From Anaerolineae bacterium (GTDB taxonomy: Bacteria; Chloroflexota; Anaerolineae; 4572-78), in the NCBI GenBank assembly GCA_965199695.1, contig OZ241372.1, positions 3,729,782 through 3,793,781 of the forward strand: a stretch of DNA of 64,000 bases. Reading direction: 5' to 3'. Position 1 is the first letter of the stretch. Every line of letters begins with the position of its first letter. A program made the position numbers and the translations under genes. This document shows, in pieces, positions 3,390-48,443 of the stretch. The notes beneath the pieces were generated by a model. It did no database searches. It was given only the letters and a program-made list of their open reading frames with translations, and was not told the origin of the DNA.

Positions 3390-3992
3390 TTACTTTATAA
3401 TCTTACTCCCACTTTGTGTCGCTTGATGGGCCATGATAATGGCATCAGCCACTTCATACATCGGTCGCCGATTGTTCATACTCATTTTCTGAATGGTTCT
3501 AAAAGCTTCGGCTTCTGTCATGGCTTTCGTATCCATTAAAATACCTTTAGCCCGGTCAACGACCTTACGAGTCGCTAAGGCTGCTTGTAAATCCTTTACT
3601 TCTTTGTGCATTAGATTAAATTCGGCAAAGCGGGCTAAGGCAATTTCAATCGCTGGACTAAGATCAGCTTCTTTGAAGGGCTTGACCAAATAACCCGCCA
3701 CGCCTGCCTCTCTGGCCCGATCAATTAAATCTTTCTGACTATAAGCTGTTAGTAGCACCACCGGGGCTATATGCTCTGTCGTCAAAATCTGGGTCGCATC
3801 AATGCCATCCAAACCGGGCATGCGAATGTCCATTATCACCAAATCGGGTTTAAGGTCTCGCGCTAATTGGACGGCCTTCTTCCCATCGCCTGCTTCAGCC
3901 ACGACCAGATAGCCCAGATTGTTCAACATTTCTCGCAAATCCATCCGAATGATTGACTCATCATCAGCAATAATTATACGCTTTCGTTCCAT
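3390..3992 (-). CDS. response regulator with receiver + ANTAR RNA-binding output domain (PdtaR-like)
   Basis: Receiver motifs IIIADDE...DLVIMDIRMPGLDG and a C-terminal ANTAR-like segment EAEAFRTIQKMSMNNRRPMYEVADAII. Overlaps the upstream kinase gene by 19 nt. Confidence 0.85.
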   Translation of the reverse strand: MERKRIIIADDESIIRMDLREMLNNLGYLVVAEAGDGKKAVQLARDLKPDLVIMDIRMPGLDGIDATQILTTEHIAPVVLLTAYSQKDLIDRAREAGVAGYLVKPFKEADLSPAIEIALARFAEFNLMHKEVKDLQAALATRKVVDRAKGILMDTKAMTEAEAFRTIQKMSMNNRRPMYEVADAIIMAHQATQSGSKIIK

Positions 3993-5521
3993 CCTTCTTC
4001 ACCTCCAAAAATTGATTTAAAGAACGTGATTGTGGCATTTGTGCCAGGGTGACTAGATAATTCTAACGATCCTTGTAAATCTTCTGTAATTAGATTTTTG
4101 GCAATCTGTAAGCCTAAACTATTGGTCTCATTTATATCAAATCCGGCTGGTAAACCAACGCCATCATCTTGGACGGTAATCATGACATGATCGCCTTCAT
4201 CCTCTAGCTGAATGGCTATCTGGCCTTGGTCCATCTCTTGAAATCCATGTTCAACTGCATTTTGCAAAAATTCATTGATAATTAAGGCACAAGCGGTGGC
4301 TTGTCGAGCAGGCAACCAAATTGAGGGGCCATCTAAACTAAACGTAATCGCTTTTTCAAGCGGCACAATACTCTGTTTAGACTGGGTGATAATCCGCTGA
4401 AAAACTTCTTTCATATTAATAGCCCAGGTACCCTGTTCGGATAAAAATTCGTGAATGACGGCCACACTTAAAATGCGGTTGATGCCGTCTTGCATGACGG
4501 TTAAGGCATCTTCATCAGTCACCCGACGGGATTGAATGCGTAAGAGCGCGGCAATTGTCTGTAGATTATTTTTAACGCGGTGGTGAATTTCCTGAATCAT
4601 AATATTTTTCATACGAATTTCTTGTTCTTTACGCAATTCTTCTGTTTTGTCACGAAGAACAAGTACAACGCCGACCAAGTTGTCCGTTAGACTAGACCGC
4701 GTGAAAATACGCCATATCTTCTCAAAAAAGTTTGGCTCCTCCAAAATAGGCAAGGATTTTCGAACCCAAGAACGCCCGCCGCTTTCTGTTTCCTCTTCTA
4801 CACAGACCAAGTTGATCATGGTTTGACGCGCAATGTGATCATCATGGGTGGCCAGATTCTCAATATTGATCCCCATCAAACCACCGACATACCCTAGTTT
4901 ACGATAGAGATTGGCGGCTATACCACTGGTATAGCGAATAAATCCCTGTTTATCCAGAACGACCAAACCTTCATGTTCCCCAAATTGAGATAGACTTTCC
5001 GCATTGGTCAGTTGGCCTTTGATGAGCATGTGGTGTAGTTGGCGTAAAGCTTTGCGAAAAACAGGGCTACGGCGGCGGTGTCGCTCATACTCAATTAGAC
5101 TCAAATTAATGCTGACCGCCCCCAAAATCTGTTTTTTGGTATCAGGACAAGGGATGGGCAGAACTTTTATCCTGACCATTGCCCCATCACCAAAACTATC
5201 TTTAGTTGAAACGCCTCTTTGGATACGGCCTGTTCGTAGGGCTTTGACGACCAAAGGAACTTCCGAAGCAATCATGAGTTGGTTGGTCCGATCATGTAAA
5301 TAAACGGGAGCCACGGAATGAGGTTGCTCATGGGCTAACACCTTTGTTTTGCCAGCTACGAGTGGGCCATACAAAAGCGTATCAGCCCGACTCAAATCGG
5401 CAATAATACTGAGATGAGTTTTGATTTGATCTACAAATAATTGCTGTTTGTCTGTGAGATGATCGGCCACGATGCCTGAGTATCCATACCTACAGCAGTA
5501 AATGGGGTAATCAGTGTTCAA
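3974..5521 (-). CDS. sensor histidine kinase, GAF/PAS + HisKA_2 + HATPase (PdtaS-like)
   Basis: HisKA_2 H-box EIHHRVKNNLQTIAALL and HATPase boxes NEFLQNAVEHG, DDGVGLP, SLGLQIA. Start is uncertain: the track's TTG at 5596 overlaps a terminator hairpin, so a TTG at 5521 is proposed instead. Confidence 0.75.
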   Translation of the reverse strand: MNTDYPIYCCRYGYSGIVADHLTDKQQLFVDQIKTHLSIIADLSRADTLLYGPLVAGKTKVLAHEQPHSVAPVYLHDRTNQLMIASEVPLVVKALRTGRIQRGVSTKDSFGDGAMVRIKVLPIPCPDTKKQILGAVSINLSLIEYERHRRRSPVFRKALRQLHHMLIKGQLTNAESLSQFGEHEGLVVLDKQGFIRYTSGIAANLYRKLGYVGGLMGINIENLATHDDHIARQTMINLVCVEEETESGGRSWVRKSLPILEEPNFFEKIWRIFTRSSLTDNLVGVVLVLRDKTEELRKEQEIRMKNIMIQEIHHRVKNNLQTIAALLRIQSRRVTDEDALTVMQDGINRILSVAVIHEFLSEQGTWAINMKEVFQRIITQSKQSIVPLEKAITFSLDGPSIWLPARQATACALIINEFLQNAVEHGFQEMDQGQIAIQLEDEGDHVMITVQDDGVGLPAGFDINETNSLGLQIAKNLITEDLQGSLELSSHPGTNATITFFKSIFGGEEGWNESV

Positions 5522-5582
5522 TACTTCGTGGGCTATTGAAGGTGGACTGAATACTGATGTCTCATCATAACTAAACCACGAC

Positions 5583-5610
5583 CAAAAAAGTCTCAAACGC
5601 TTTGAGACTT
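5583..5610 (-). terminator. rho-independent terminator downstream of fmt
   Basis: Perfect 9-bp stem AGTCTCAAA/TTTGAGACT (5589-5597/5601-5609) with a 3-nt loop, followed on the minus strand by a T-run (plus-strand A-run 5584-5588). Confidence 0.55.
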
Positions 5611-5664: not shown

Positions 5665-6588
5665 CTACAACTGAGACCCAATAAAATCCTGCGCTCCATT
5701 GATGAAGTCACGGGTCGCCATTGTACGCTTATTTGGCGGTTGAATTTGGTCCAGCCTAACCGCCCCATCAGCCGTTGCTACTGCGACATCATTCTCTAGC
5801 TTGAAAATGCTGCCAGGTGGTAAATCAATTGACTCGTTCAAATATGGCCTGACCGAAATAATTTTTAGCGGCTTATTGTGCCAAATGGTAAATGCACTAG
5901 GCCAAGGATGATAGGCCCGAACATGGCGTTCCACAGCTATGGTGCTTTGTTTCCAATTGATTAGACCATCATGCTTATGCAGTTTGGGTGCTAAGGTGGC
6001 TAAAGTCTCATCTTGAACTTGAGTTTCAAGTTCTCGAGCAAACCAATAAGGCAAGGTGTCTATGATTAACGCTGAACCTAAGGCGGCTAATTCATCTGTT
6101 AGACTGCCGCCTGTATGTTCGAGCGTAATTGGCACGGCTCGGCGGCTCACAATCGGTCCAGTATCAAGACCACGATCCATGTGCATAATGGTGACACCTG
6201 TCTCAATATCGCCTGCCCGAATCGCTGCGGTCACAGGCGAAGCCCCTCGCCAACGCGGGAGAAGTGAGGCATGAATATTCAGACAGCCATATTCTGGGAG
6301 ATTGAGGACCTTATTTCGCAAAATATGACCAAAGGCAGCCACAATGATCACATCAGGGGCTAAGGCTTTCAGAGCAGCCTGAATGTCCCCCATTTTATGA
6401 GGCTGGAGAACAGGTATCCTAACAGACTCAGCAAATTGTTTCACTGGCGGCGGCATAAATTTACGACCCCGCCCCCTGCGTCGGTCTGGCTGCGTGACCA
6501 CAGTGCTGATGGTATATGTTTGATGTAGTTTTTTTAAGGCAGGCACGGCAAAATCTGGGGTGCCCATGAAGATGAGGCGTTTTGACAT
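5665..6588 (-). CDS. fmt: methionyl-tRNA formyltransferase
   Basis: N-terminus MSKRLIFMGTPDFAVP and the formyltransferase core NIHASLLPRWRGASP. Confidence 0.9.
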   Translation of the reverse strand: MSKRLIFMGTPDFAVPALKKLHQTYTISTVVTQPDRRRGRGRKFMPPPVKQFAESVRIPVLQPHKMGDIQAALKALAPDVIIVAAFGHILRNKVLNLPEYGCLNIHASLLPRWRGASPVTAAIRAGDIETGVTIMHMDRGLDTGPIVSRRAVPITLEHTGGSLTDELAALGSALIIDTLPYWFARELETQVQDETLATLAPKLHKHDGLINWKQSTIAVERHVRAYHPWPSAFTIWHNKPLKIISVRPYLNESIDLPPGSIFKLENDVAVATADGAVRLDQIQPPNKRTMATRDFINGAQDFIGSQL

Positions 6589-6930
6589 GGCGTTGCTCTT
6601 TGTTTTGGATGGACTTTCAAAAAGATATAATAGTATACCCCAAAAGCATAAGAAGTGCTACCCCACTGACAATCGCCAAAATATAGCCAGATAATCTCAC
6701 AGACCCTACACATCTAAAAGCATCCTAACCTGATAATCAGAATATAAAGGCTGAATTTGCCATTTTTAAGCAGTGGTGATACATTTCGTGTTTATCAAGC
6801 CTTTCAAATTTAGGAATGAATGAAATTCGCTTTTGATGATATTTGAGGCAAATTGGTTAATAATCTTGCCTGAATGATTGAATAATGAATAGTTGATTTA
6901 TTATTCTACAAATTCATAGGATGGAAAATA

Positions 6931-8367
6931 ATGATGACTGAAAACCAAGAAGCTTTACCCAAGATTTGGTACGATGAACATAATGAGACGATTTATATCG
7001 GGGACGAAAAGGTTGATGACTTGTCGAAGATGCAACAGACGATTTTACAATTCTTGATCCAAAATCCCTTGGTCAGACATGATCAATATGTCTTGATGAA
7101 TTTGGTCTGGCCTGATCCGCATACCCATAAAGAAAGTACGCCCAACGCTTTGCAAGCCCATATTTTTCAAATTCGGAAACGGATTGAACCAGACCCCGCC
7201 CCCAAACATGCCCGTTATCTGATTACTTGGTATGGTAGCCCCGGCGGCTACCAATTTTTCCCTGAAGGCAGGCCCGAAGTCCCAGCCTTAACGGTGTCCC
7301 CAACCTTTGAGGGCCTTCCAGAAAAAGTGTGGATTGAAGAACAAACACAGAATTTGTATCAAGGTGAGACCTTGCTGCAAGGGCTTTCAGATAGACAATT
7401 TACGCTTTTACGCTATTTTGTGGAGAACCCCTATGTTAAACATACTAGAGAGAAGCTCATTGAGGTCGGTTGGACGGATAAGGAACAGCAAAAGGGGGTG
7501 AATATTAATGCTTTACAGGCCCATATTGTGTATATTCGGAAACGAATTGAGCCTGACTTTTCTCATCCCCGCTTTTTAGTCACTTGGCATGGACGTGCAA
7601 CGACGGGCTACCAATTTTGGCCAGAAGGCATTGCTAAATTGCCGCGTCAAGGGCTAACAGGTCAAGACATCCCCGCTGAAAATATTTTATGGTACGATGA
7701 GGTTACGCAAAATTTATATCAAGGCCAATCTTTAATTCAAGGGCTATCTGAACGACAATCTTTGCTTTTGCGCCATTTGATTCAAAATCCCTATATCGAG
7801 CATAGCCGTCATATATTAATGAAGGAAGCTTGGTCAGAGATAGAACGCAATGAAGGGGTGACTCCCAATGCGCTCCAAGTTCATATTTATCAAATTCGGA
7901 AACATATTGAACCGAACTTAGAGATACCGCGCTATTTATTGACCTGGAAAGGGAAGCCCGGCGGTTATTACTGTGTGCCAGAGGGTCAAAAGCAGCATGC
8001 AGCAGCCTCGGCGAATGGTCATCGAGAACGACAGGGCGAAATTTGGTTTGACGAAGCCTCGCAAGGCATTTTTCAGGGTCAGACTTTGATTGAATCTTTA
8101 TCCAAAAAGGGCTACGCTTTGTTGAAGTTTTTAATTGAAAATCCACGGGAAAAGCTCCCCCAAGCTGCTCTCATTGAATACCTGGAGGCGGATAAGAAAC
8201 CAAAAGATATAGCAGTTAAAGCCCTTTATCGTCATGTAGAGCAGGTACGCAAGCAGATTGAGCCTGACTTGAGACGACCAAAGTATCTACTCACCTGGCA
8301 TAGCCGACCCGGCGGCTATCAATTTTTTCCAGATGGCAACCCGGATGAAGAAGCCCAAAGTGCCTGA
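6931..8367 (+). CDS. protein composed of four tandem OmpR/PhoB-type winged-helix DNA-binding domains, no receiver
   Basis: Four units of about 100 aa (aa 11-113, 132-233, 252-352, 370-469), each ending ...NALQAHI(F/V)QIRKRIEPD...RYL(I/L)TW.G.PGGYQF(F/W)PEG. This matches the trans_reg_C pattern (LRKKIE...TVRGvGY). Confidence 0.7.
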   Translation: MMTENQEALPKIWYDEHNETIYIGDEKVDDLSKMQQTILQFLIQNPLVRHDQYVLMNLVWPDPHTHKESTPNALQAHIFQIRKRIEPDPAPKHARYLITWYGSPGGYQFFPEGRPEVPALTVSPTFEGLPEKVWIEEQTQNLYQGETLLQGLSDRQFTLLRYFVENPYVKHTREKLIEVGWTDKEQQKGVNINALQAHIVYIRKRIEPDFSHPRFLVTWHGRATTGYQFWPEGIAKLPRQGLTGQDIPAENILWYDEVTQNLYQGQSLIQGLSERQSLLLRHLIQNPYIEHSRHILMKEAWSEIERNEGVTPNALQVHIYQIRKHIEPNLEIPRYLLTWKGKPGGYYCVPEGQKQHAAASANGHRERQGEIWFDEASQGIFQGQTLIESLSKKGYALLKFLIENPREKLPQAALIEYLEADKKPKDIAVKALYRHVEQVRKQIEPDLRRPKYLLTWHSRPGGYQFFPDGNPDEEAQSA

Positions 8368-8370
8368 GCG

Positions 8371-8574
8371 ATGCCTGAGAAATCTATTCAACTCGACCAA
8401 TTTTTAAAGTTAAATGATATTGTCTCGACAGGCGGACAGGCAAAATTACTTATTCAGCGTGGTGAAGTGAAACTGAATGGAGTCATTGAGACAAGACGCA
8501 AAAAAAAATTATATGACGGTGATATCATTGAGCTATTCGAACAATCTTGGGTGGTGGAATTTGTCGAATATTAG
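8371..8574 (+). CDS. S4-domain RNA-binding protein (YbcJ-like)
   Basis: LDQFLKLNDIVSTGGQAKLLIQRGEVKLNGVIETRRKKKL matches the YbcJ/S4 pattern. Start lies 4 nt after the preceding stop. Confidence 0.7.
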   Translation: MPEKSIQLDQFLKLNDIVSTGGQAKLLIQRGEVKLNGVIETRRKKKLYDGDIIELFEQSWVVEFVEY

Positions 8575-8583
8575 TGTCTATGC

Positions 8584-9819
8584 CTAAGGCGGTGTCCGCC
8601 CGTCAATCAGAATAAAACTGACCGCTTGGTTTTGAACCGTAACTGGATAATCAAAATTAATGCCGTCAAATGATGTTTTGATCACATAATTACCCGCTGG
8701 TACGTCGGCGAAGGTAAAGGTTTCGCCAAGTTGAGGGTCGGGCGTATAACGATGGTCTGGATAGGTGCGAGTTTGTCGCCAAAAACGGTTTGGGGAGGCG
8801 GCTTGATGGAGGGTGAGCAGTTGTTGAGGCACATAAAATCCATCTTTATCGACGACCCGTCCAGCAATCACCCCATAGCCATAATCAGGTCGGATCCAGA
8901 GATCAGGGTTTTGGGTACCTAAATAATCCAAGGCATTGTTCAAACGTATCTCTAAGTGAAGATGCGGTCCCAAGGCGACGCCTCCTTGTCCAGTGAGCGC
9001 AATCATTTGACCTGCTGAAACAATATCGCCTTCTTGAACCAAGGTTTGCGACACATGACCATAAAGCGTGTAGACGGGAAAGTTTTCTCCATTAGACAGC
9101 GTTAGACCCTCATGTTGTAAGATCACGGCTTGACCGTAAAAATTGTTATATAAACCGACAACTTGACCCAAATCATTGGCAGCAAAAACGACCAGACCAT
9201 CGCCCACAGCTAAGACGGGTGTATTTTGTGGATTTTGAATATCAATCCCGCGATGCCACAAATAAAGGCCATTATTATTTGTGCCATAAGGATATTGCCA
9301 ACTGCCCCAAGTTCGGTTGGGGTGATTATAAGGACGATTGAACCAAAAATGCGGTTCGCTTTGGGTATAATCTGGCGCATTATCAGCCCGCACTGTGCGT
9401 GGTAGGGGCGTAGCTGTTGGGGTGTGGGCTGGTGTGGGGAGTTTAACGTTGGCAAAGACTGCTGCTTTGGATAGGTCAATGTTGAGCAGTGGGGTAGGGG
9501 TTGATGTTCGGGTTGGCGTAGGTGGGATGGGGGTGTTTGTGGCTGTGTCAACCGGCGTAGAGGTCGATGTTTCAGTGGGCGTATCAGTCGGTAAAGGCGT
9601 ATAGGTAGGAGGCAGGGTCATCGTTGGCGACGGGGATGTTGTCGCCGTGGGTGTGGCTAATTCTATGACGGAGACTGCCTCTTGGTTAGATGCTTCTGGC
9701 GAGGCAGGTCCAAATATCGCTTGAAGACAACTGGCTAAACTAAGTCCTATCAGTAGATAAAGGAAAATCCATTGCTGTTTCCGACCTGTTATCGTTTGTT
9801 TTAATTTAGAATGAAACAA
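8584..9819 (-). CDS. M23 family metallopeptidase with N-terminal signal/anchor and Pro/Thr-rich linker
   Basis: M23 motifs HRGIDI and LYGH...GPHLHLE, with N-terminal hydrophobic segment and PTPT linker. TTG start. Confidence 0.85.
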   Translation of the reverse strand: MFHSKLKQTITGRKQQWIFLYLLIGLSLASCLQAIFGPASPEASNQEAVSVIELATPTATTSPSPTMTLPPTYTPLPTDTPTETSTSTPVDTATNTPIPPTPTRTSTPTPLLNIDLSKAAVFANVKLPTPAHTPTATPLPRTVRADNAPDYTQSEPHFWFNRPYNHPNRTWGSWQYPYGTNNNGLYLWHRGIDIQNPQNTPVLAVGDGLVVFAANDLGQVVGLYNNFYGQAVILQHEGLTLSNGENFPVYTLYGHVSQTLVQEGDIVSAGQMIALTGQGGVALGPHLHLEIRLNNALDYLGTQNPDLWIRPDYGYGVIAGRVVDKDGFYVPQQLLTLHQAASPNRFWRQTRTYPDHRYTPDPQLGETFTFADVPAGNYVIKTSFDGINFDYPVTVQNQAVSFILIDGRTPP

Positions 9820-9975: not shown

Positions 9976-12281
9976 TTAAGGAGTCCAAACAATACGTTCC
10001 TCCAACCAGCCAAAGGAATGCTCTACATCAATCTGAGCAATCCCATCTATCGAGCCATTAAGCGAGAAGAGTTTTCTTTGCTGTTCCCCTGAGGGAGTCA
10101 TGGCCCATACGCCCCACTCACCATCTCGGTCAGCCACGAACACAAGGGTATTGCCATCTGGGGACCAAGCGGGTAGACCATCGTTGGGAACCTCAGTTGT
10201 CAGGCGCGTCAAATTTTGACCCGTCAGATCAATTTTATAAATTTCCCAATTGCCATCTCGGTCTGACATAAAAGCAAGGGTGTTGCCATCAGGGGAGACA
10301 GCAGGTGCGTTATCATTGGCCTGGGGCGTGAGTTGTTGAGGCCCACTGCCATCAAGATTGGTGATGATTAAACCACAATTATTGCTTAAGCAACCGCGAT
10401 AAACGATGCGTCCATCGGGTGTGACAGCAGGCTTTTCGCCTTGGACAGGGATTCCATCGCGGCGAATGATTTCATGGTCTGCGCCATCAGTACGATAAAC
10501 ACCTGGCGTTTCACCACCCTGACGAGAATGGAAGACAAAGAACTGTTCATCAGGTGAAAAGACAGGGCTGGCTGCTTCAAAGAATTTTACAAAGTGCCAG
10601 GCATTTGTTTCGTTGATTGCCCGCGTCATCAAGCCTCGTTGACTGGCCTGCCAAGAGCGATAAACAATGCGTTGTCCATCTTGGCTCATATCAGGTTGGC
10701 TGGCATCGGCCACAAGCAACTCTTGGTCAGTCCCATCTAAATTCGCTCGGAAGATGTCATAGGTGCCACGGGTTAGGTCATAAACCGGAAAAATGAGCTT
10801 GCCAGTCAGTGCTTGTTGACCCCGCCCTCGAAATTGGTCATGTGAGACAAAATCAGGTAAAGGCTCGACCTCACTTAAGGGTGAGCCTACTTCGTTCGTT
10901 GCGTGAGCGACAGGTTCATCTTGAGGCTCCTCACCTGTATCTGCGGTTTCAGCTGACACCTGAGTATCATTCGCTGAGGCAGATACGGTTTCTTCCTCGG
11001 ACTCAGGTAATGCTGTCGGTGTTATTTCTGGTGAGACCGCTTGGCTGGGGGTGTCGGTGGTTTGGGGATCGGATATTTCAGCTTGACGTTCAGTGCGGGT
11101 AGCGGATAGGGCTGTCGCTGTGGGAATAAAGACCACCTCTTCTTCTACTGGGGCATATAAACGAAGATTATCGAAACTGACCCAGATATTCGGGTCATCA
11201 AAACTGCTGGCGAAAAAGCCGAAGTTACCTGATTGGAAGCTATCGTCAGTCACCTGAGCTAATTTTTGTTCATTGGCGAACACGGCAATTTGTGGCCCAA
11301 AGGCATGGACAGCCAAGTGATTAGGATCTTCACCTTTGTTAATCCTGCCTGAACCTGTCCAATCGACTAAAATATGCCATTGACCCTGTTGTAATTTCGC
11401 CAAATGAAAAAAGCCATCGCTGCTGACATCAAAGCGATAATAATTATTGGTGTCAACAAAGCGGAAGATAATGCCGTAAGTATTATTGTTCCCCCCTTGA
11501 CGTTTAATGGTTTCCACTTCAATCTTGAAGTCGGCTGTATGTCGATTAGCCAAACCCCAAACAACCAAGTTATTTGTGTTGATATCGATATTATATTGAT
11601 GATTGCCATAGCGTTTGGTATAATAAGGGCCAGAGGCATCATCCCACCCACTATTCGAGTCACTGAAATCATCTTTATATTTTAGGGGTAAATCCAATGT
11701 ATTGTCTGTATGACCAGTTTCAATGAGGTCGGATTGCAAGGTGGCCTCTTCACTTTTGGTCAGAGCATTATTTCTCACCCACAGGACCAACGCGACAAAT
11801 GCGAGGATTAAAATAACGATCAAGCCACCAGCAATATAGACTAAACGCCCTATATACTCTGGCTTGGGATTGGGCTGAGAAGGGGATTGAGCCTGGTCTG
11901 GGGCAGGGGAAGAGACTTGTTGAGGTTTGTCAATGTGTTCGGCTAAGGGATCTTGAAAAACCAAGATACTTTCGCCAACTTGAAGGCTATCTCCTTGTGA
12001 GATGGGTTGTAGGGTCCCCAAAGGCATATTATTGAGTAACGTGCCATTGGCACTGCCTAAATCGGCTAAAAGCCATTCGCCATTTTCATAGCTGATTTGA
12101 CAATGATAGCGCGAGACACGAGGGTCGACCAGCACCACATCATTATCAATCTCACGGCCAATACGAGTCTTGAATTTTAAGCGGAATGTTTTGCCGACCG
12201 ACTCGCCCTGAATCATTTCTAACTTGGGCACAACTGATGGGCCAACAATCGTTGAGTCTGCTTTTTGTGCTTGATCCATAA
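9976..12281 (-). CDS. FHA domain protein with TM segment and C-terminal TolB-like (PD40) beta-propeller
   Basis: N-terminal FHA (GKTFRL...GREIDNDVVLVDPRVSRYHCQI...GSANGTLLNN), a TM helix near aa 160-185, an acidic PT-rich region and C-terminal PD40 repeats (SPDGNTLAFMSDRDGNWEIY...). ATG at 12281 is preferred over the track's TTG at 12327. Confidence 0.75.
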
Positions 12282-12401
12282 AAACTTCCCTAAAAAGAGT
12301 CGCCGAATTATAGCAGAGGGAGCGCAAGTCAGCCAGTCAGCGGGGCAGCGTTACATTGTCTTTAATTTTCCTAACTTCCAAAATGACTTCATCACCCTCT
12401 G

Positions 12402-14307: not shown

Positions 14308-14364
14308 TGCTGAATGATGAGTTATGAGTTTTTTAATTCAGCACTCAGCACTCATCATTCAGCA
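14308..14364. terminator. long hairpin, likely bidirectional terminator 3' of the APH-like gene
   Basis: 14-bp perfect inverted repeat TGCTGAATGATGAG/CTCATCATTCAGCA flanked by T-rich runs on both strands. Confidence 0.45.
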
Positions 14365-14404
14365 TTCTATTTTCATACGCCGTACTGTACCATCGTGCTG
14401 AAGT

Positions 14405-17163: not shown

Positions 17164-17361
17164 GGTGATCTCCTGGAAAAATTACAATTAACAATTAGCA
17201 AATTAAAAACTAACGACTAAGGACTAAAAATTAAATTAAGCACATAATAGATGGTGTTTGACCGCCTGATGTGACAATTCGTCCAACAAAAAAGCCGCAA
17301 GTATTATAAATACCCACGGCTTAACCTAGTGTTTTATTTGATGGCCCAGGGACCAAACAAT

Positions 17362-19244: not shown

Positions 19245-19672
19245 GATTAGCTCCTTAGATAATGAAGGTCAGTCCGAATAATTATAGCCTAAATACGCTT
19301 TCGTATCCAATGTGCGGCAAAGTTCATCTTACAGCCCCCACTTCTCCCGTTCTTCCTCCATTGACATCAATTCACCCAGACCATGAACTGTATGCTCAGT
19401 CACATCAACACCGCCCCACCGCTTACAAAAAATTCGCAATATCCTGCAAATCCGCAGTTCTAAATCGTAGAACTGAACAACCCTGATCCTTTCCCTAAGC
19501 CAAATCCCCACCTCTCATCCCCACAAACTGCCTAATTCGCGCTTGGCCTGCGACGTAAAAACGGATATTGTATAAATTGACTGATGAATAACGGTAGTAG
19601 CTGGTTGAAAAATCTGTAATATGCAGGGCGTAGATATAACGAACCACGAACCACGCCCTGCGGTAAGACCTT

Positions 19673-38664: not shown

Positions 38665-39849
38665 ATGACAAAGCGTAGAGATCGTAGCTGGTGTATTTTA
38701 TGGTCAATGTGGATGTGGACAGGGGCAATGTTTTTGGCTGGCCCCATGGTTTCAACTTGTAGTATGCCAAGCGATCAGGAATATAGGCAGCCTTTTTCAG
38801 GGCCGTTTTATACCGCCACGACAAGCCTCCTCACAGCGACACTTGAGGTTGTGCCGCCGGAAACGCCACCGGCTATAGCTACGATGACCCAAGTGCTGTC
38901 ATTAAAAGTGCCGCCAACCTATACACCCGTTGTCTCTCCGACAAATACCACGAAGCCTACGGCATCGGCCACTGCAACCCCCTCGAAGACTCCGACCTCT
39001 ACCTATACACCGACTTCTACGGCCACTGCTACATCTACTGCAACACATACCCCCACTCAGACACCTAGCGCAACACTAACTGAAACGGCTACGTCAACCG
39101 CAACACGTACACCGACTCCGACGCAAACCCCTGTGCCTACGGAGACACCTAGCGCAACACTAACTGAAACGGCTACGTCAACCGCAACACGCACACCGAC
39201 TCCGACGCAAACCCCTGTGCCTACGGAGACACCTACCGCCGTAGCAACGCATACCCCCTCTCCGACAGCTACACCCGCGACCTTATTTTTCAAGAGTCAT
39301 CAGGGTTTCACATTGGGGTCCGATTATCAGGTCGTAGGCGAAATTGTTAACGGACAAGCATCGCCAGCTTTTGCGGTAAATGTTGTTGCCCAATTTTACG
39401 ATCAGGATGATAACCTATTGGCTACAGAAAGTGCCTTTGCCTATTTAAGTAAGACTGAAGTCCAACAGCGTAACCCCTTTAAAATAATCTTGCCTGATCT
39501 TGGTTCGCAGGTCAATCGTTATGAATTAGACCTGAGCGCAGAAGATGTAAGCCTGATAGATCGGCAACGTTTGACTGTGTTGAGTCAAAATATCCGCCCT
39601 AGTTCAGATACGGAAATGGAAATATTTGGTGAAGTACGTAATGATCACCGGGAATCCATGCAAAGGCTCACCGTGGTTGTTACTTTATATAATGTAAATG
39701 GTCATGTTGTGGATGTGTCACGAGGCATGACCGAAGCCCAGACCTTGGCCTCTCAGGAAACATCCCCCTATGTCATTGAATTTTTAACGCCGGATCTAAT
39801 GTTTGACGACTTTAGCGTTCAGGCTGAAGGAAGTCGAGCGATTTATTAG
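38665..39849 (+). CDS. secreted protein: signal peptide, Pro/Thr-rich linker, two ~85-aa beta-rich C-terminal repeats
   Basis: Signal/TM at the N-terminus; TPT repeat linker containing an exact 28-aa duplication; two related C-terminal modules ([11 protein letters not shown]... / [11 protein letters not shown]...). Confidence 0.6.
39061..39228. repeat. 2 x 84-bp near-perfect tandem duplication inside the PT linker
   Basis: Both copies encode [28 protein letters not shown]. Confidence 0.8.
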
Positions 39850-39982
39850 TGGGTTCGTTATTAGCCATCAGTTATTAGTGGTTAGTGAACTGCTAACTAT
39901 TCACCATAAACTAAAAATGAAGACCTAAGACCTAAAAACTCAGAGCTAATAACTACCCACAAAATACTAAAAGAGGTTATTT

Positions 39983-42900
39983 ATGATAAGTAAGCGTTCG
40001 ATTTTATACGTTGTGTTAACGATGTTCCTCGTCTTGGGATTACAACCTCCTGTATCCACGGGAGCCCAAACATCATCTGATGAAGAGGATGAACCTCCCT
40101 TTGTACCTGGGCAGTTGATTATCGGTTTTCGCGCTGGGGTAACAGGGGAAGAGATTGCTACATTTTATGAAGACTATAATTTTACCGAAGCATCAGATTT
40201 GGATGGCAATCCGAATGATACTGATGAAGAAGAGAAATTGGCTTATGTGCCTGCACAAGTGACGCAAGATTTTATTGCCTCAGTTGAGCGTGATCCGCGG
40301 GTTGAATTTGCCGAGCCTAACTATTTGCTGTCAGTAGATTTTGGGCCAAATGAGTTTATGTGGCCTCAGGCTCTGACCCCAGATGACCCGCAGTTCGATG
40401 AAATGTGGGGTTTAAATAACACGGGGCAAACAGGCGGCACCGATGATGCTGATATAGACGCGCCGGAAGCCTGGGAGATAACCACAGGGTCAACTGAGAT
40501 TTTGGTTGGGGTGATTGATACAGGGGTGGACTATGACCATGAGGACTTAGCCGCCAATATGTGGGTTAATCCTGATGAAATTCCGGATAATGGCATAGAT
40601 GATGATGATAATGGCTATGTCGATGATATACATGGGATTAATGCCATTAATGACAGTGGGGATCCGATGGATGACTTCGGGCATGGCACACACGTCGCTG
40701 GGACGATTGGCGCCAAGGGGGGCAATGGCCTCGGCGTGATTGGGGTGAATTGGGATATTCGAATTATCGCTTGTAAGTTTCTTGGGGCTAGCGGTGGGGG
40801 GAATAGTGCAAATGCGGTCAAGTGTTTTAAGTATTTTAATCAATTAAAAGCCAAGGGATATAAGGTCCTTATTACGAATAATAGTTGGGGTGGGGGTGGT
40901 TTTTCCCAAGCCTTGAAAGAGGCGATGGCAGCGACAGACCAGCCAGACAATACACCAATTTTGCATGTTTGTGCGGCTGGGAATGCTGGAAATGATAATG
41001 ACTCTATACCAGCCTATCCGGGCAGTTATGATTTGGACAATATTCTCGCTGTGGCCGCCACGGATCATCATGATCTCTATGCCAGCTTTTCCAGCTATGG
41101 CGCAGTGGCTGTCGATTTGGCTGCCCCTGGGGTAGAGATTCTTTCGACTGTCCCGACAGGCAATTGTGCGCTTTGTGATCCGACTGGTTATGAATTTGTC
41201 AACGGAACGTCTATGTCCACGCCCCATGTGGCTGGCACAGCGGCCTTGATTTGGGCGCAATATCCTGATTCAACCTATCTCCAAGTGATTCAACGCCTGT
41301 TGTCGGGGGTTGATCCTTTAGATGATACGAGTAAGGCCACTGTGACGAATGGTCGCTTGAATGCGTTTAATGCTTTGGAGGATGATTCAAGCCCGCCAGC
41401 AGCGGTGAATGACTTGGCTATAGACAATGCTGGTTTGGCTTCTATCACCCTCAGGTGGCAGGCGACAGGCGATGATGGCCTAGAGGGGACGGCCAATGGC
41501 TATGATATTCGTTATTCAGATGTTGGGCCCTTTGATTGGGAGACAGCGACCAAAGTGAGCGATGAGCCTAAGCCCCAAGCGGCTGGGGAGACAGAAACTT
41601 TTGCCGTTTCAGGTTTAGATCCTAGTACAACCTATCATTTTGCGATTAGAGTGCTGGATAACGTAGGCAATGCCTCTGAACTATCAAACATCGTGACAGG
41701 CAACACCAAGGCGGGGTCGCCAATTTTTGAGGATGATGTGGAAAGCGGAGAAGGGGAGTGGACCATAGCTGATGATGATGCCCTGTGGCACATCTCTGAA
41801 CATCGCGCCAATAGCCCCCAGAATGCTTGGTATTATGGGATTGAAGGAACTTGGAATTATGATACTGGCGGCCCTAATTCTGGAACGCTGACATCCCCGC
41901 CAATTGACCTAAGTGACACACCCGAAGCCTTGTTAACCTTCTATGAGTGGAGCGAAGTCGAAACGAACAACAGCTATGACCGGACGCGGGTTCAAATTTC
42001 ACTGGATGGCAAAAACTGGGAGACAATCTTTGAATCTCATGGCACCAATGATACCTGGATAAAACGAGTGATTGACCTCACATCGTATGTGGATGAAGAG
42101 ATTCAACTGCGCTTCTGGTTTGATACCATCGACGGCCTGTTTAATACCTTCGAGGGGTGGTATATTGATGATGTGACGGTGTTTGGGCTCTCTAAAGAAC
42201 CGCCTCCAGCCCAGTCGAATTTGCTGATCCCTGAAAGTAATGTGGGACTAAATCCAGCCGACCCCCAAGCTGGGGACGAGATTGTGATTCGAGCCACGAT
42301 TTTGAACAACGGCACGAGCATCGCGAGTGATGTTACTGTCATGTTCTTTGATCTTTCTCAAGATGAGGGAAAGGCCCCGAAGCCCATTGGCCAGCCTCAG
42401 ATCATTGAGCGGATTGCGCCTGGTGGTAGTGGTCAGGCTAAGATTACTTATAGCCCTGACCCAGCAGAAATGAGTTTACATCAACCTAGCCAGCGGGCTA
42501 TTCAAGTCGTGGTTGATCCGAATAATACCATTGTTGAGGGGAATGAGACGGATAATGAAACAACGAAGAATTTCCAGATCGCCCCAGCACCTAGTCCGAA
42601 TTTGGTTATCTTAGAAAGTAACATAGGCCTTAGCCGAGCTGAACCTGTTTCCGGCGAAGAAATTTTCATCAAGGCGACCGTATTGAATCAAGGCACAGCC
42701 GGTGCTAGTGAGGTCGCGGTTCTGTTTATCGATGTCACGGATGGGACTTCAATACCGATTGGCCCCCAACAGATTATAGAGACGGTCCCGGCTGGAGGAA
42801 GTGGCCTGGTGCAGGTACGCTATGATACTTCAGGCAAGGTCGGGGAACGACAAATTCAGGTCTTGGTCGACCCGAATAATATCATTCAGGAAACGCCTGA

Positions 42901-45900
42901 ATCTGATCCGAATGGGGCCAATGATAATCAAGCCCAGAAAACCTTAACCATTCACGCCACCGCTTTGTCCAACTTGGTGGCGCGATCTGACAATATCGGC
43001 TTTGATCAGCCCTCGCCCAATTGGGGGGATGAGGTAACGATCAGCGCAGTGATTGGCAATGATGGTCAGGCTGAGGCGAACCAGGTGATGGTATTATTTG
43101 TCGATGCTACAGATAGCAGCGGTTCTACAGAAACTGCGCCTGTGCCTATTGGCCTCCCCCAAATAATTAAAACCATTGCTGCTGGTAGTAGCCAGCGTGT
43201 TCAAGTAGGCTATAGACTGCCCGAACAAAGCGGGGTGAGCGGTCATTCGCCTTCGCTAGAACGCGAGATTCTGGTTGTTATTGATCCTTATAATGTCATC
43301 CCTGAAACAACGGAAAGTGATAATGAAGCCCAAGCGACACTTTCAGTGACACCGCCCCCAGCCCCGAACTTGGTGGTGCAAGCTGAGACAATTGGGATTC
43401 ATCCCGCTACCCCAAGCGTTGGCCAGGCGGTCACGCTTCGGGCGATCATCTTCAATAAGGGGACGGCTGAAGCCAAGCCTGGGGCAGCAGATGAGATCTT
43501 GGTCTTGTTTGTGGATGCCACAGGCGGCGAGTTGATCCCCATTGGCCCGCCACAGACCTTGCCCAGTCTGGCTCCTGGTACAAGTACGGTCATCGAAATA
43601 GCCTATGATGCGCCGGGGAAAGTAGGCGAGCGGCTTATTCAAGTGATCCTTGATCCAGATAATGTTTTGCTTGAAAGCGATGAAAGCGATAATGAAGCCA
43701 AACGTACTTTGACCGTAACCGCCCTACCCAAACCAAATTTGGTTGTCACTGCGGATAATATTGGCTTTGATCCGCCTGAGCCAATGAATGGTGAATCGGT
43801 CACGATACATGCTGCTATTTTGAACACAGGTAACGCAGAGGCTCAGGCAGTTCTGATTAAGTTCGTTGATATAACAGGCGGTGGAGCACGTTTGATTGGT
43901 GAACCGCAAACAATAGACGTAATCCCAGCCGGGTCGAGTGACCGTGTTGAGATTTCTTATTTAGCTAGGAGTCGTGGTGAGCGTGAGATTGCGGTAGAGG
44001 TTGATCCAAATAATACGATTGTTGAGCGTGCAGAAGATGACAACAAAGCTAGTCAAGTTTTATCTATTCGATCTCTCGCAGGCCCTAACCTATCCCTTCT
44101 GGACAGTAATATTGGCATTGACCCGGCCGAGCCAGCAGATGGCGAAACGATAACGATTAGGGCCGTGGTCCTCAACACAGGCGGTCGCCGGGTGTCTAAT
44201 GTAACAGTCTCGGTGATTGATGTGACCGAAGGAGGGATTGTGCCGATTGGGGGGCCTCAAACCATCTCTTCCATTGCGCCAGGCGGCAGCGGAAGCATTC
44301 AGATACCTTATAACCCCTTTGGGCGACTTGGAACGTTGCGCTTGCCTGGCCAAGTTGTCAGTCAGGCGCGTGAGCGGCAGATTCAGGTGGTGGTTGATCC
44401 GAATAATACCATTTCTGAGACCGATGAAATGGATAATATGGCGACCAGAGGGGTGACCATAGCCTCGCCGCCTGTGCCGAATTTACTTGTCCCCGTCGAT
44501 AACATTAGTGTTACTCCCAGTCAACCGCGTATGGGTGAAGATGTGACTCTGAGAGCTGTTATCCTCAACGATGGTGATGCTGAAGCAAGCGATATCAGCG
44601 TGATGTTTGTTGATATCACAGATAATGGCTTTGTACCAATTGACTCCTTGCAAACGATTTCTAACTTGGAGCCAGGTGGTAGCAAGGCTGTCCAAGTTCG
44701 CTATGAGACACGCCATAGAGGCCCGTCTAATGAGGCCGATGGCCCTGTCGGCAGCAGCGTTTCCACAAGTGAACGTCAAATTCGGGTCATCGTTGATCCC
44801 AATAATACGGTCCCCGAAGCAAGAGAGAGTGATAATGAGGCAGTGAAGACCTTTGTCATCACCCCACTCCCTAAACCGAATTTGGTGATGTTTGCTAGCA
44901 ATATCGGCTTGAATGTGGCCGAGGTGAAAACAGGGACACCCCTTACGGTCACAGCCACAATTATTAATGATGGCGGAGCTCCCGCGAGTGGGGTCAGGGT
45001 GTTGTTTGCTGATGTGACTGGGGGCACTGCTAAACCTCTTGACGATTTACAGGTGATCTCTGAAATTCCGCCGGGTGGCAGTGGTGTGGCCCAATTGGTG
45101 TATAATACGCTGGGACGTTCGGGGGAACGGATTTTGCACATCATGATTGATCCGAATAATACCATTCCTGAGGCGGTTGAGGATGATAATCAAGCAGAGA
45201 AAAGCTTCACCATTAGCCCCCCGCCTAGGGCAAACTTAGTCATTCTAGAAAATAATATTGGTCTTCATCCGCAGGAGCCGCTAGTCGGTCAAACCGTGAC
45301 GCTACATGCGACCATCCTTAATGATGGAGATGCTTCAGTGAAAGATGTGGCGGTTCGCTTTGTTGATGTGACTGATGGAGCGAATCAGAACGGTAGTTTG
45401 GGAGCCATACCGATTGGTGAGGTACAGATGATTGCCAGTATTCCGCCAGGGAGCAGCGGATCGGTGCAAGTCAATTATGATACCAGTGCTAAGGTCGGTC
45501 AACGTCAGATTGAGGTGATTGTTGATCCTCATAACCTGATTGGGGAGGCGAAGGAATCTGATAATACGCAGATAAAGACATTTATGGTAGCCGCCTTAGC
45601 CAAGCCCAATCTGGTGATTCAAGCGGATAGCATTAGTCTGAACCCGCTTCAGCCTCAGGCAGGTGATGTGGTCTTGCTAAACGCAGTGGTGATGAATAAG
45701 GGGACTGCGCCAGCACGAGAGGTGATGGTTAAGTTTGTCGATGTCACAGACGGGGGTTCAATCCCCGTGGGTACACTGCAAATTTTATCGGCTCCAGATG
45801 GCGATACGGTTATTATGCCTGGTAGCAGCGGCACAGTTGAGGTGATGTACGATACACATAAGCAGGTCGGGGGCGGTGCTTTTGAAACCGAACGTGAGAT

Positions 45901-47647
45901 TGCAGTGGTCGTTGACCCGACTAATGCCATTGTTGAGGCAGATGAAAAGGATAATGAGGCTAAGAAAGTGATCAACGTCATGGCTCTGCCTGCACCAAAT
46001 TTAGTGCTTGAGGCGGCCAATCTTGGCTTTAATCCGTCTCATCCGACCGTTGGTGATGAGGTCGTTCTGTATGCTACTGTCTTGAATAAAGGGACAGCCG
46101 CAGCGCACCATGTTGAGGTAACGTTTATTGATGACACAGATGAGTCACGATTGATTGGGTTGCCACAGGGGATTGAGACGATTGCCCCTGGAGATAGTGC
46201 TGAGGTGCAGGTCAGCTATAATACACAGGATGTGCGTTCGCTAAGGAACGAGTTAGATGCTCGTAAGATCAAAGTGGTTGCTGACCCCAATAATTTAATT
46301 TTAGAAGCAAATGAAAGCGATAATGAAGCGACAAAAGAACTCAGCATTGCCGCTGTCGCAGCCTCTAACTTAGTGGTCTACGCAGACAATATCGGCACAC
46401 ACCCAGTCTCACCGGTTGTCGGCGATGAAGTGACGCTCAACGCAGTTATTCTGAACACTGGCTCTGCTGAAGCGAAGGATATTTTGGTGATATTTCTGGA
46501 TGTGACGGGTGAGGTGGCCCTGCCCATCGGTAAACCGCAGCAAATTGCTGGGCCTGATGGTACAAGCAGTTTGGCCCCAGGTAGCAGTGCGGCGGTGCAG
46601 ATTGTGTACGATACGACTGGTCAAGTAGGCGAACGACAGATTGAAGTGGTGGTTGATCCAAATAACCTCATTCCTGAAACAGAGGAAGATGACAACAGGG
46701 CGATTAAATCGATTTTGGTGGAATCCATGTCCGCGCCCAATCTGGTCATGTTAGCGAACAATGTTGGCTTGCATCCAGTGGGGCCAACTGTCGGTGATGA
46801 GGTTAGCTTAAAGGCAGTTGTTTTGAATCAGGGAGGTGTTGCAGCGAAAGATGTTATGGTTTTATTTGTTGATGTGACAGACGGCGATGCCCTGCCAATT
46901 GGCAAACCCCAGATAATCGCTTCGATTGAGGTGGGTAGTAGTCGTATGGTTGAAACGCGGTATGATACCACGAATAAAGTGGGTGAACGCTTGATTCAAG
47001 TCGTGGTTGATCCCAATAATCTTATCGCTGAAAATAATGAAGGCGATAATAAGGCCCTGAAGAGTCTTAATGTTGTACCGCCGCCTGAACCGACCCCGAC
47101 CATTACGCCGACCCCAACCCCATCGCCAACGCAGGCTCCAACTGATACACCTGCCCCGACTCCAACAATTGCTCCAACTGATACACCTGCCCCGACTCCA
47201 ACAGGTAGTCCAACGCCCACGCCGCCTGCCGATGACCCAAGTCCAACGGAAACAGTCTCTCCGACACCGCCGGGCGACGAACCGCCAGAAACACCTGAGC
47301 CTGAGCCGAGCATGCCCCCAGAGAGTACCCCGACACCAGATGAAAATGCCCCAACAGCAACGGCTCCGGCAGATGAGGTCACGCCAACTGCGACATCTGA
47401 GCCAGAAGATGGTCCAACAGGAACTCCGACAGTTTCTTCAGTTTCAGCATTGCCGCCGGAAATACTAGCACCTATTAGATCTGCTGATTCTGTAGGCAAT
47501 CTTTCCAACGGAAACGGCGTTTCTACGATGGCGATGCCACTTAATCAGGCTTCTGAGGAAACAGCATTTCCGAGGGGGGGGATGACAGTCAACCCTAAAG
47601 TTATACTTAGCACGGACATAAATGTAATTTTTAGGGAACGCAGATAA
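39983..47647 (+). CDS. giant secreted subtilisin-like (S8) peptidase with FN3 and lectin/MAM-like domains, 13 CARDB repeats and a PT-rich tail
   Basis: Signal peptide. S8 triad: VIDTGVD (~40510), HGTHVAG (~40685), GTSMSTPHVAG (~41205). Thirteen ~125-aa repeats PNLV..DNIG..P.EP..G..V.....NEG.A.A..V.V.F.DVT.G...PIG.PQ.I....AGSS....V.YDT..KVGER.I.VVVDPNN.I.E..E.DN.A. Confidence 0.85.
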   Translation: MISKRSILYVVLTMFLVLGLQPPVSTGAQTSSDEEDEPPFVPGQLIIGFRAGVTGEEIATFYEDYNFTEASDLDGNPNDTDEEEKLAYVPAQVTQDFIASVERDPRVEFAEPNYLLSVDFGPNEFMWPQALTPDDPQFDEMWGLNNTGQTGGTDDADIDAPEAWEITTGSTEILVGVIDTGVDYDHEDLAANMWVNPDEIPDNGIDDDDNGYVDDIHGINAINDSGDPMDDFGHGTHVAGTIGAKGGNGLGVIGVNWDIRIIACKFLGASGGGNSANAVKCFKYFNQLKAKGYKVLITNNSWGGGGFSQALKEAMAATDQPDNTPILHVCAAGNAGNDNDSIPAYPGSYDLDNILAVAATDHHDLYASFSSYGAVAVDLAAPGVEILSTVPTGNCALCDPTGYEFVNGTSMSTPHVAGTAALIWAQYPDSTYLQVIQRLLSGVDPLDDTSKATVTNGRLNAFNALEDDSSPPAAVNDLAIDNAGLASITLRWQATGDDGLEGTANGYDIRYSDVGPFDWETATKVSDEPKPQAAGETETFAVSGLDPSTTYHFAIRVLDNVGNASELSNIVTGNTKAGSPIFEDDVESGEGEWTIADDDALWHISEHRANSPQNAWYYGIEGTWNYDTGGPNSGTLTSPPIDLSDTPEALLTFYEWSEVETNNSYDRTRVQISLDGKNWETIFESHGTNDTWIKRVIDLTSYVDEEIQLRFWFDTIDGLFNTFEGWYIDDVTVFGLSKEPPPAQSNLLIPESNVGLNPADPQAGDEIVIRATILNNGTSIASDVTVMFFDLSQDEGKAPKPIGQPQIIERIAPGGSGQAKITYSPDPAEMSLHQPSQRAIQVVVDPNNTIVEGNETDNETTKNFQIAPAPSPNLVILESNIGLSRAEPVSGEEIFIKATVLNQGTAGASEVAVLFIDVTDGTSIPIGPQQIIETVPAGGSGLVQVRYDTSGKVGERQIQVLVDPNNIIQETPESDPNGANDNQAQKTLTIHATALSNLVARSDNIGFDQPSPNWGDEVTISAVIGNDGQAEANQVMVLFVDATDSSGSTETAPVPIGLPQIIKTIAAGSSQRVQVGYRLPEQSGVSGHSPSLEREILVVIDPYNVIPETTESDNEAQATLSVTPPPAPNLVVQAETIGIHPATPSVGQAVTLRAIIFNKGTAEAKPGAADEILVLFVDATGGELIPIGPPQTLPSLAPGTSTVIEIAYDAPGKVGERLIQVILDPDNVLLESDESDNEAKRTLTVTALPKPNLVVTADNIGFDPPEPMNGESVTIHAAILNTGNAEAQAVLIKFVDITGGGARLIGEPQTIDVIPAGSSDRVEISYLARSRGEREIAVEVDPNNTIVERAEDDNKASQVLSIRSLAGPNLSLLDSNIGIDPAEPADGETITIRAVVLNTGGRRVSNVTVSVIDVTEGGIVPIGGPQTISSIAPGGSGSIQIPYNPFGRLGTLRLPGQVVSQARERQIQVVVDPNNTISETDEMDNMATRGVTIASPPVPNLLVPVDNISVTPSQPRMGEDVTLRAVILNDGDAEASDISVMFVDITDNGFVPIDSLQTISNLEPGGSKAVQVRYETRHRGPSNEADGPVGSSVSTSERQIRVIVDPNNTVPEARESDNEAVKTFVITPLPKPNLVMFASNIGLNVAEVKTGTPLTVTATIINDGGAPASGVRVLFADVTGGTAKPLDDLQVISEIPPGGSGVAQLVYNTLGRSGERILHIMIDPNNTIPEAVEDDNQAEKSFTISPPPRANLVILENNIGLHPQEPLVGQTVTLHATILNDGDASVKDVAVRFVDVTDGANQNGSLGAIPIGEVQMIASIPPGSSGSVQVNYDTSAKVGQRQIEVIVDPHNLIGEAKESDNTQIKTFMVAALAKPNLVIQADSISLNPLQPQAGDVVLLNAVVMNKGTAPAREVMVKFVDVTDGGSIPVGTLQILSAPDGDTVIMPGSSGTVEVMYDTHKQVGGGAFETEREIAVVVDPTNAIVEADEKDNEAKKVINVMALPAPNLVLEAANLGFNPSHPTVGDEVVLYATVLNKGTAAAHHVEVTFIDDTDESRLIGLPQGIETIAPGDSAEVQVSYNTQDVRSLRNELDARKIKVVADPNNLILEANESDNEATKELSIAAVAASNLVVYADNIGTHPVSPVVGDEVTLNAVILNTGSAEAKDILVIFLDVTGEVALPIGKPQQIAGPDGTSSLAPGSSAAVQIVYDTTGQVGERQIEVVVDPNNLIPETEEDDNRAIKSILVESMSAPNLVMLANNVGLHPVGPTVGDEVSLKAVVLNQGGVAAKDVMVLFVDVTDGDALPIGKPQIIASIEVGSSRMVETRYDTTNKVGERLIQVVVDPNNLIAENNEGDNKALKSLNVVPPPEPTPTITPTPTPSPTQAPTDTPAPTPTIAPTDTPAPTPTGSPTPTPPADDPSPTETVSPTPPGDEPPETPEPEPSMPPESTPTPDENAPTATAPADEVTPTATSEPEDGPTGTPTVSSVSALPPEILAPIRSADSVGNLSNGNGVSTMAMPLNQASEETAFPRGGMTVNPKVILSTDINVIFRERR
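42203..47090. repeat. array of 13 coding CARDB-like repeats, period ~370-390 nt
   Basis: Repeat boundaries read from the protein (..SNLLIPESNVG.. through ..APNLVMLANNVG..). Divergent at DNA level. Confidence 0.7.
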
Positions 47648-48256: not shown

Positions 48257-48443
48257 AAACTATATCCCCATAAAACAATTAGCAATGAACTAATGAACAA
48301 TTGTCTGTTAATGGCTTCTTGGCTAATGGCTAATTACTAATTGTTCTTTAATTTTTGGAACTCCCTAATACAAATTTTAGCTGTTTCCATAACATATACC
48401 TAAAATGGAGGGGACATTCTGTCAAATCGGACGATTCTGCTGA

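Follow-up and report, generated by a model that had tools for sequence, protein, structure and literature searches.

Four tandem effector domains in a receiver-less protein

We analysed a 64,000-nucleotide (nt) stretch of contig OZ241372.1 from an Anaerolineae bacterium (assembly GCA_965199695.1, positions 3,729,782 to 3,793,781), hereafter the window. Its forward strand carries a gene for a 478-amino-acid (aa) protein made of four tandem OmpR/PhoB-type winged helix-turn-helix (wHTH) effector domains, whose open reading frame (ORF) starts at the most upstream start codon possible. The gene and its repeats are laid out as follows:

6931..8367, + strand: four-repeat wHTH gene, ORF with ATG start; 478-aa protein with four tandem OmpR/PhoB-type winged-helix effector domains (Trans_reg_C)
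6952..7314, + strand: repeat 1, aa 8-128, recognition helix NALQAHIFQIRKRIE; Trans_reg_C 31.5 bits alone
7315..7674, + strand: repeat 2, aa 129-248, recognition helix NALQAHIVYIRKRIE; Trans_reg_C 40.0 bits alone
7675..8031, + strand: repeat 3, aa 249-367, recognition helix NALQVHIYQIRKHIE; Trans_reg_C 37.2 bits alone
8032..8364, + strand: repeat 4, aa 368-478, divergent recognition helix KALYRHVEQVRKQIE; Trans_reg_C 35.4 bits alone

A first, sequence-only reading of this DNA had proposed four tandem Trans_reg_C domains without any receiver or sensing domain, and both proposals were borne out. The entire protein scores 130.9 bits against Pfam Trans_reg_C (PF00486; gathering cut-off 26.2 bits) in 4 stretches, and each repeat, when scanned singly, exceeds the cut-off. 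Repeats 2-4 are 39-42% identical to repeat 1, and identities between the domain cores within the protein range from 39 to 50%, with 24 invariant alignment columns. The repeats are domains of ~100 aa joined by linkers of ~16-17 aa. The Pfam scan found nothing significant besides Trans_reg_C, including no Response_reg and no BTAD domain, and the NCBIfam response-regulator models (RpaB, OmpR, PhoB, and MtrA) align via their C-terminal ~90 positions only and stay far under their cut-offs. No membrane segment was found in the protein (Kyte-Doolittle 19-residue maximum 0.53; grand average of hydropathy -0.68). The 342 nt upstream of the ORF have stops in all three plus-strand frames and no coding potential, so that no receiver is concealed there. 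The product is a soluble, slightly acidic protein (isoelectric point (pI) 6.4, net charge about -5) of four complete effector domains and no receiver.

Fold and recognition residues

Structure prediction of the full-length protein, which the same reading had put forward as a check, was carried out with AlphaFold2 (AF2) on a three-sequence alignment and returned four wHTH folds. The model has a mean predicted local distance difference test score (pLDDT) of 73.6 and a predicted template modelling score (pTM) of 0.40. Each of its four units starts with two or three strands, continues with three helices, and closes with a beta-hairpin, and the intervening linkers (116-129, 240-245, and 356-367) have low confidence (pLDDT <50). 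The model shows a beads-on-a-string protein with four separate winged-helix folds. Matches obtained with Foldseek against the Protein Data Bank (PDB) are almost all OmpR-family DNA-binding domains (DrrB, PhoB, OmpR, PhoP, YycF, RstA, and ToxR), and the isolated domains match with a probability of 1.00 and target-normalised TM scores of 0.7-0.79. When a profile of the four repeats was run against PDB sequences, OmpR DNA-binding domains came out on top (E = 1.5e-8), with an alignment that spans the recognition helix and continues to the wing and the C-terminal 'GYxFxPDG'. All four repeats have H70, R75, K76, T92, W93, G99, and Y100 in common. By alignment with PhoB and OmpR, these residues map to the recognition helix (H..IRK.IE) and the wing (TW.G..GY), a pattern that would fit retained DNA binding by the repeats.

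Relatives, orthologues, and selection

A search of ~5.8 billion protein clusters yielded 313 matches. Among the matches listed (the best 120 of 313), the only full-length relatives of the window protein (P0001) are P0002 and P0003. P0003 (483 aa) has four repeats and is 61% identical to the window protein, while P0002 (593 aa) has five Trans_reg_C repeats, is 55% identical, and is encoded on the same 6.11-Mb contig, outside the window. In a search of 1.84 billion representative proteins with the four-repeat profile, P0001 scored 759 bits (4 stretches) and P0002 694 bits (5 stretches); the next-best match scored 152 bits. Pure arrays of four or five domains of this subfamily are nearly unique.

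The repeats of the three proteins correspond by position. Same-position repeats of P0001 and P0003 are 69% (repeat 1), 72% (repeat 2), 65% (repeat 3), and 61% (repeat 4) identical. In P0002, repeats 3, 4, and 5 each share 61% identity with window repeats 2, 3, and 4, respectively. The first two P0002 repeats both resemble window repeat 1, the additional unit being a duplicate of repeat 1. Position-matched repeats across proteins are thus 61-72% identical, versus 39-50% within one protein, and all three proteins keep a repeat period of 114-121 aa despite differing linker sequences. This correspondence and the conserved period argue that the array is old and that each position has been kept individually, as opposed to a decaying fusion. 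At the helix positions aligned with PhoB R200/R201, repeats 1-4 have FQ, VY, YQ, and EQ, respectively; the pairs are identical in three of the four matching P0003 repeats, repeat 2 of which has VQ for VY.

Orthologues with 92.5% protein and 94% DNA identity are present on two contigs from Logan metagenomes, L005 (SRR9074985) and L006 (SRR26713615). Both contigs begin within the wHTH gene, so that L005 covers its final three repeats and L006 its final one and a half. Their gene order is that of the window, with the wHTH repeats followed after 3 nt by a gene for an S4 protein and then by a convergent M23 peptidase gene; because two independent metagenome assemblies show this order, the array is not an assembly artefact. 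Over 347 aligned codons, the window gene and its L005 orthologue differ with dN 0.035 and dS 0.170 (nonsynonymous and synonymous divergence, respectively), and the ratio of 0.21 indicates purifying selection. A scan of Joint Genome Institute (JGI) metagenomes for orthologous loci with upstream DNA returned none.

Origin of the repeat module

Approximately 300 other matches (of 313) cover one repeat length only and belong to proteins of ~460-500 aa, labelled Anaerolineae, Chloroflexi, or Caldilineae wherever the source names them. These single-domain relatives combine an N-terminal half of P-loop type (GxGxGRS/T; Pfam nSTAND1 or AAA_22) with one C-terminal wHTH; in P0005, for example, Pfam recognises nSTAND1 plus Trans_reg_C. 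The wHTH domains of P0004, P0005, and P0014 are 44-54% identical to the window repeats, comparable to the closeness of the repeats to each other, and the repeats share the TWHGRPGGYQFFPEG wing subtype with these relatives (wing signature PGGYQFFPEG). A Pfam search for an N-terminal P-loop or nSTAND1 NTPase domain in the window protein found none. Because the nearest single-domain relatives are the C-terminal modules of NTPase-wHTH proteins and not response regulators, the array probably arose by internal tandem duplication of such a module, with loss or absence of the NTPase, and does not descend from response regulators. The NTPase-wHTH family (e.g., P0004, P0005, P0014, and P0049) is large, is found in Anaerolineae/Chloroflexi, and apparently gave rise to the repeat module; one member, P0084, bears an additional N-terminal wHTH. 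There is no S4 gene near the loci of single-domain relatives L002-L004.

Other proteins with several Trans_reg_C domains

The sequence-only reading held that OmpR-type outputs normally occur once per protein. This is the usual case, but architectures with two to four Trans_reg_C domains exist in public data, which makes tandem OmpR-type domains a recurrent minor theme. These more distant proteins (P0163, P0168, P0245, P0260, P0190, and P0219 score 58-92 bits against the repeat profile) have the following Pfam architectures:

P0168: four Trans_reg_C domains after an unassigned N-terminal region of ~170 aa
P0163: three Trans_reg_C domains alone
P0245 (P0245/P0218): three Trans_reg_C domains with a STAND NTPase and TPR repeats
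P0257: two Trans_reg_C domains with an AAA domain
P0260: two Trans_reg_C domains with an adenylate cyclase domain
P0190 and P0219: two Trans_reg_C domains alone

They resemble the window protein in having several OmpR-type domains per chain and no receiver, but belong to more distant subfamilies, most with fewer copies or additional domains. In the neighbourhoods of P0163 (L011) and P0168 (L012), we found no partner gene in common with the window, no S4 gene, and no heptamer arrays of the kind described below; the L011 and L012 neighbourhoods themselves have no common partner gene. Our literature searches turned up no account of tandem OmpR-type or Trans_reg_C array proteins.

The S4 neighbour

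Directly downstream of the four-repeat gene lies a second, much shorter gene:

8371..8574, + strand: S4_2 (YbcJ/YaaA-like) RNA-binding protein gene, 67 aa (PF13275)

Tight linkage of this gene to the four-repeat gene, as noted from the sequence, was confirmed: the stop and start codons are 3 nt apart (TGA gcg ATG), and the arrangement is kept in L005 and L006. Because of the short, conserved gap, co-transcription is likely, and translational coupling is probable as well. The convergent M23 peptidase gene of the window (8584-9819) ends 9 nt past the S4 stop. The 67-aa protein scores 81.1 bits against S4_2 (cut-off 24.6) and falls under the NCBIfam cut-offs for YaaA (74 versus 84.75 bits) and YbcJ (35.9 versus 95 bits). 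Its homologues number in the hundreds, at 60-79% identity in Anaerolineae plus other groups, and are labelled 'ribosome-associated protein', 'YbcJ', or 'RNA-binding S4 domain-containing protein'.

The proposal that the two genes form a combined DNA/RNA-binding pair was not supported. The wHTH-S4 arrangement is absent from L001, L007, and L008, and the gene after that of P0003 encodes a multi-pass membrane protein instead of an S4 protein. In other Anaerolineae (L007-L010), the S4 gene follows unrelated genes, namely one for a 274-aa protein in L007 (S4 at 1389-1592) and a DinB_2-like gene with a 4-nt overlap with the S4 start in L008 and L010 (S4 at L008 5001-5204). Downstream of S4, both L007 and L008 have an M14 peptidase with PKD domains. 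We infer that S4 is a housekeeping gene of a widespread, YbcJ/YaaA-like kind, which encodes a ribosome-associated protein and shares the wHTH transcript in the window lineage only; its link with the four-repeat gene looks incidental.

Leader, candidate operator, and heptamer arrays

Upstream, the four-repeat gene is separated from the divergent fmt gene by a region containing one repeat candidate:

6589..6930, no strand: divergent intergenic region between fmt (-) and the four-repeat gene, presumed promoter and leader; AT-rich, ~37% GC
6871..6900, + strand: TGAATGATTGAATAATGAATAGTTGATT, the candidate repeat of the sequence-only reading, 30-60 nt upstream of the ATG; degenerate array, period 7-8 bp by self-similarity

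The leader has several sigma-70-like matches. An Rfam scan of the window found one tRNA-Leu and no leader element or riboswitch near the four-repeat gene. The four evenly spaced direct repeats that the sequence-only reading had suggested looking for in the leader are absent from 6589-6930, where a repeat search and Tandem Repeats Finder (TRF) gave only short two-copy families at chance level, none of them with a period of 10-11 bp. Its candidate operator at 6871-6900 fared no better. Local self-similarity peaks there at lags of 7-8, 11-12, and 15, the array lies under the TRF score threshold, and the period is 7-8 bp, not the 10-11 bp of four regularly spaced units. There are no other good copies of TGAATGATTGAATAATGAATAGTTGATT in the window (3 matches at <=3 mismatches versus 1.2 expected, with 11 of 100 shuffles reaching 3).

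The period is, by contrast, close to that of a class of intergenic arrays that is widespread in the window. Eight period-7 rows were found, versus 0-4 in local shuffles, with 2-8 copies each, and most sit 10-35 nt 5' of a start codon:

942-1013: AATTAAC and TTGCTAA arrays
14336-14367: ATTCAGC array
17177-17235: AATTAAC-like array
19639-19655: ACGAACC array
39920-39954: AAGACCT array
48320-48334: TGGCTAA array

An AATTAAC array of 4.4 copies, a unit that also occurs in the window, lies 12 nt before the P0003 start (L001 314-344). Similar heptamer arrays are present in the Anaerolineae loci L004, L007, and L008, with no multi-wHTH gene visible in the fetched DNA. Heptamer arrays before start codons have been described in Beggiatoaceae (TAACTGA) and cyanobacteria (STRR), where the binding factor is unknown (PMC4679880). 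The 6871-6900 motif is best seen as a probable degenerate member of this general class and not as a specific four-part operator. Tandem arrays with periods of 10-11 or 21-22 bp were also considered, but those present in the window are intracoding or heptamer multiples.

Genomic context

The genes on the other side of the leader are transcribed away from the four-repeat gene:

5665-6588, - strand: fmt, divergent from the four-repeat gene
3974-5596, - strand: PdtaS-type histidine kinase (GAF_PdtaS + HisKA_2 + HATPase_c)
3390-3992, - strand: REC-ANTAR response regulator, 19-nt overlap with the kinase gene

No cognate histidine kinase is encoded alongside the four-repeat protein; the sole nearby kinase is the PdtaS-type enzyme, whose operon already includes its own partner, the REC-ANTAR regulator. 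A signature of horizontal transfer was considered and rejected, the GC content of the four-repeat gene (0.44-0.46) being the same as that of its neighbours. Elsewhere, the window encodes a 783-aa protein (9976-12327, - strand) with an N-terminal FHA domain and C-terminal PD40 (TolB-like beta-propeller) repeats, and a 2554-aa S8 subtilase (39983-47647, + strand) with 13 CARDB repeats and an fn3 domain. Just upstream of the subtilase gene, an 84-bp tandem repeat (2.2 copies, 97% matches) occupies 39059-39239 within the ORF at 38665-39849.

Comparison with known regulators

The effector domains of PhoB and OmpR can bind DNA on their own. In the intact regulators, phosphorylation-driven dimerisation of the receivers sets two effector domains head-to-tail on direct repeats 10-11 bp apart, as in the PhoB-pho box structure 1GXP and at the OmpR F1-F3 and C1-C3 sites, and OmpR fills neighbouring sites with contiguous rows of dimers. 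Every window repeat has the Pfam family and effector fold of these regulators (OmpR, PhoB, DrrB, and RpaB) and retains OmpR-like motifs in the helix (...IRKxIEP...) and wing (...GGYxF(F/V)P(D/E)G). In contrast to them, the window protein has no receiver or phospho-acceptor and carries four domains per chain instead of one; the loop between helices 2 and 3 of its repeats is 3 residues longer, and the PhoB base-contacting arginine positions are replaced. The nSTAND1/AAA NTPase-wHTH proteins of Anaerolineae, which are from the same phylum and to which every repeat is closest in sequence, have one C-terminal wHTH behind a P-loop STAND-type NTPase, whereas the window protein has four and no NTPase.

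Receiver-less proteins in which Trans_reg_C works without phosphorylation are represented by ToxR/CadC/TcpP and the SARPs (AfsR, ActII-ORF4, and EmbR). Several tandem copies of ToxR bind direct repeats in promoters, and ToxR (PDB 8B4D) is among our Foldseek matches. ToxR-like proteins and SARPs have a single wHTH plus a membrane anchor or BTAD domain, neither of which is present in the window protein. Several winged helices per chain that read repeated or extended nucleic-acid sites are found in the Rep initiators of iteron plasmids (WH1-WH2) and in SelB (WH1-4). This is an analogy only; their winged-helix families are unrelated to the window repeats, and SelB binds RNA.

Proposed function and alternatives

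We consider it somewhat more probable than not (roughly 0.55) that the window protein is a phosphorylation-independent, covalent tetramer of effector domains acting on a composite site of ~40-45 bp. Linkage of the four domains in one chain would replace receiver dimerisation, so that they could occupy four consecutive half-sites with high avidity and with no need for phosphorylation, and activity would be governed by the amount of protein and not by a signal. The variable helix positions differ from repeat to repeat, yet are conserved per position across relatives, which suggests four unlike subsites; a composite target whose four half-sites differ would then be more likely than one of four identical repeats. 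That the protein reads direct-repeat arrays, as first suggested, is plausible.

Several observations weigh against this proposal. AF2 gives no confident interdomain arrangement, and the pI of 6.4 is mildly acidic. The repeat positions aligned with the base-contacting R200/R201 and the wing R219 of PhoB are not arginine, and because of this, DNA binding by the subfamily is assumed from homology. In addition, no target DNA was found in the window, and an intergenic four-unit array with 10-11 bp spacing is absent both upstream of the gene and elsewhere in the window.

The lack of a specific operator would also suit a protein with an architectural role, coating or bridging DNA with low specificity, or a competitor that occupies the direct-repeat sites of NTPase-wHTH regulators and, having no NTPase switch, is dominant-negative. 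We regard this as unlikely, though it is the alternative that fares best. Flexible linkers without fixed interdomain contacts would permit bridging of separate DNA segments, and since the repeats resemble the wHTH domains of NTPase-wHTH proteins as much as they resemble each other, site preferences could overlap. However, the pI and net charge are unlike those of basic nucleoid proteins, and the conservation of recognition-helix residues by position points to defined, distinct half-sites. Moreover, the same 6.11-Mb contig yields no close NTPase-wHTH protein among the best 120 of the 313 matches.

A further, quite improbable reading is that the window protein and its five-repeat paralogue are 'polydactyl' readers, with one subsite per module and an asymmetric address of 40-55 bp, or, more adventurously, that they are the binding factor of the heptamer arrays found close upstream of many start codons in this and other filamentous bacteria. 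Either would, if true, be a new mode of modular nucleic-acid recognition derived from a two-component output domain.

Action on RNA or 5' leaders, perhaps together with the S4 protein, is very unlikely. Here, the protein would bind heptamer arrays or other repeats and control translation. The position of the S4_2 gene 3 nt downstream, retained in close orthologues, speaks for this, as do the arrays 10-35 nt before several starts in the window, the degenerate one preceding the four-repeat gene, and the AATTAAC array preceding P0003; for such arrays, the binding factor is unknown in other phyla (PMC4679880). The four RNA-binding winged helices of SelB provide a precedent. Against it, the S4 gene has unrelated upstream neighbours in other Anaerolineae, and none lies downstream of the P0003 gene. 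Heptamer arrays occur in other organisms (L004, L007, and L008) with no multi-wHTH gene in the fetched DNA. Multi-wHTH arrays of this subfamily amount to only three database proteins among the matches listed. A period of 7 bp also mismatches the 10-11 bp footprint of the OmpR/PhoB fold. To our knowledge, no OmpR/PhoB domain binds RNA.

Finally, we give almost no credence to a non-working product (a decayed response-regulator fusion, which the sequence-only reading had named as a possible refutation, a pseudogene, or an artefact of assembly or gene calling): the architecture is indeed very rare, with three distinct proteins among the matches listed from ~5.8 billion clusters, but the frame is intact with a dN/dS of 0.21, the structure is seen both in a contig the size of a complete genome and in two metagenome assemblies that are independent of it, the linkers of ~16-17 aa are too short for receiver remnants, and all repeats come from one subfamily whose nearest single-domain members are NTPase-wHTH proteins and not response regulators.

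Significance

What is new here is a rare, selected, receiver-less tandem array; the OmpR/PhoB output domain itself is already well known. The finding draws attention to undescribed architectures with several Trans_reg_C domains and to the probable parent NTPase-wHTH family, which is abundant in Anaerolineae. The OmpR/PhoB effector domain is the commonest two-component output in bacteria, and normally it is phosphorylation-driven dimerisation that makes it act on tandem sites. If the covalent-tetramer proposal is correct, a natural chain of four or five domains would show that covalent linkage can replace oligomerisation. Such arrays would offer a system for studying the interplay of spacing, linker length, and the specificity of each domain on long composite sites, and could be used to test their value as a modular DNA-binding scaffold.

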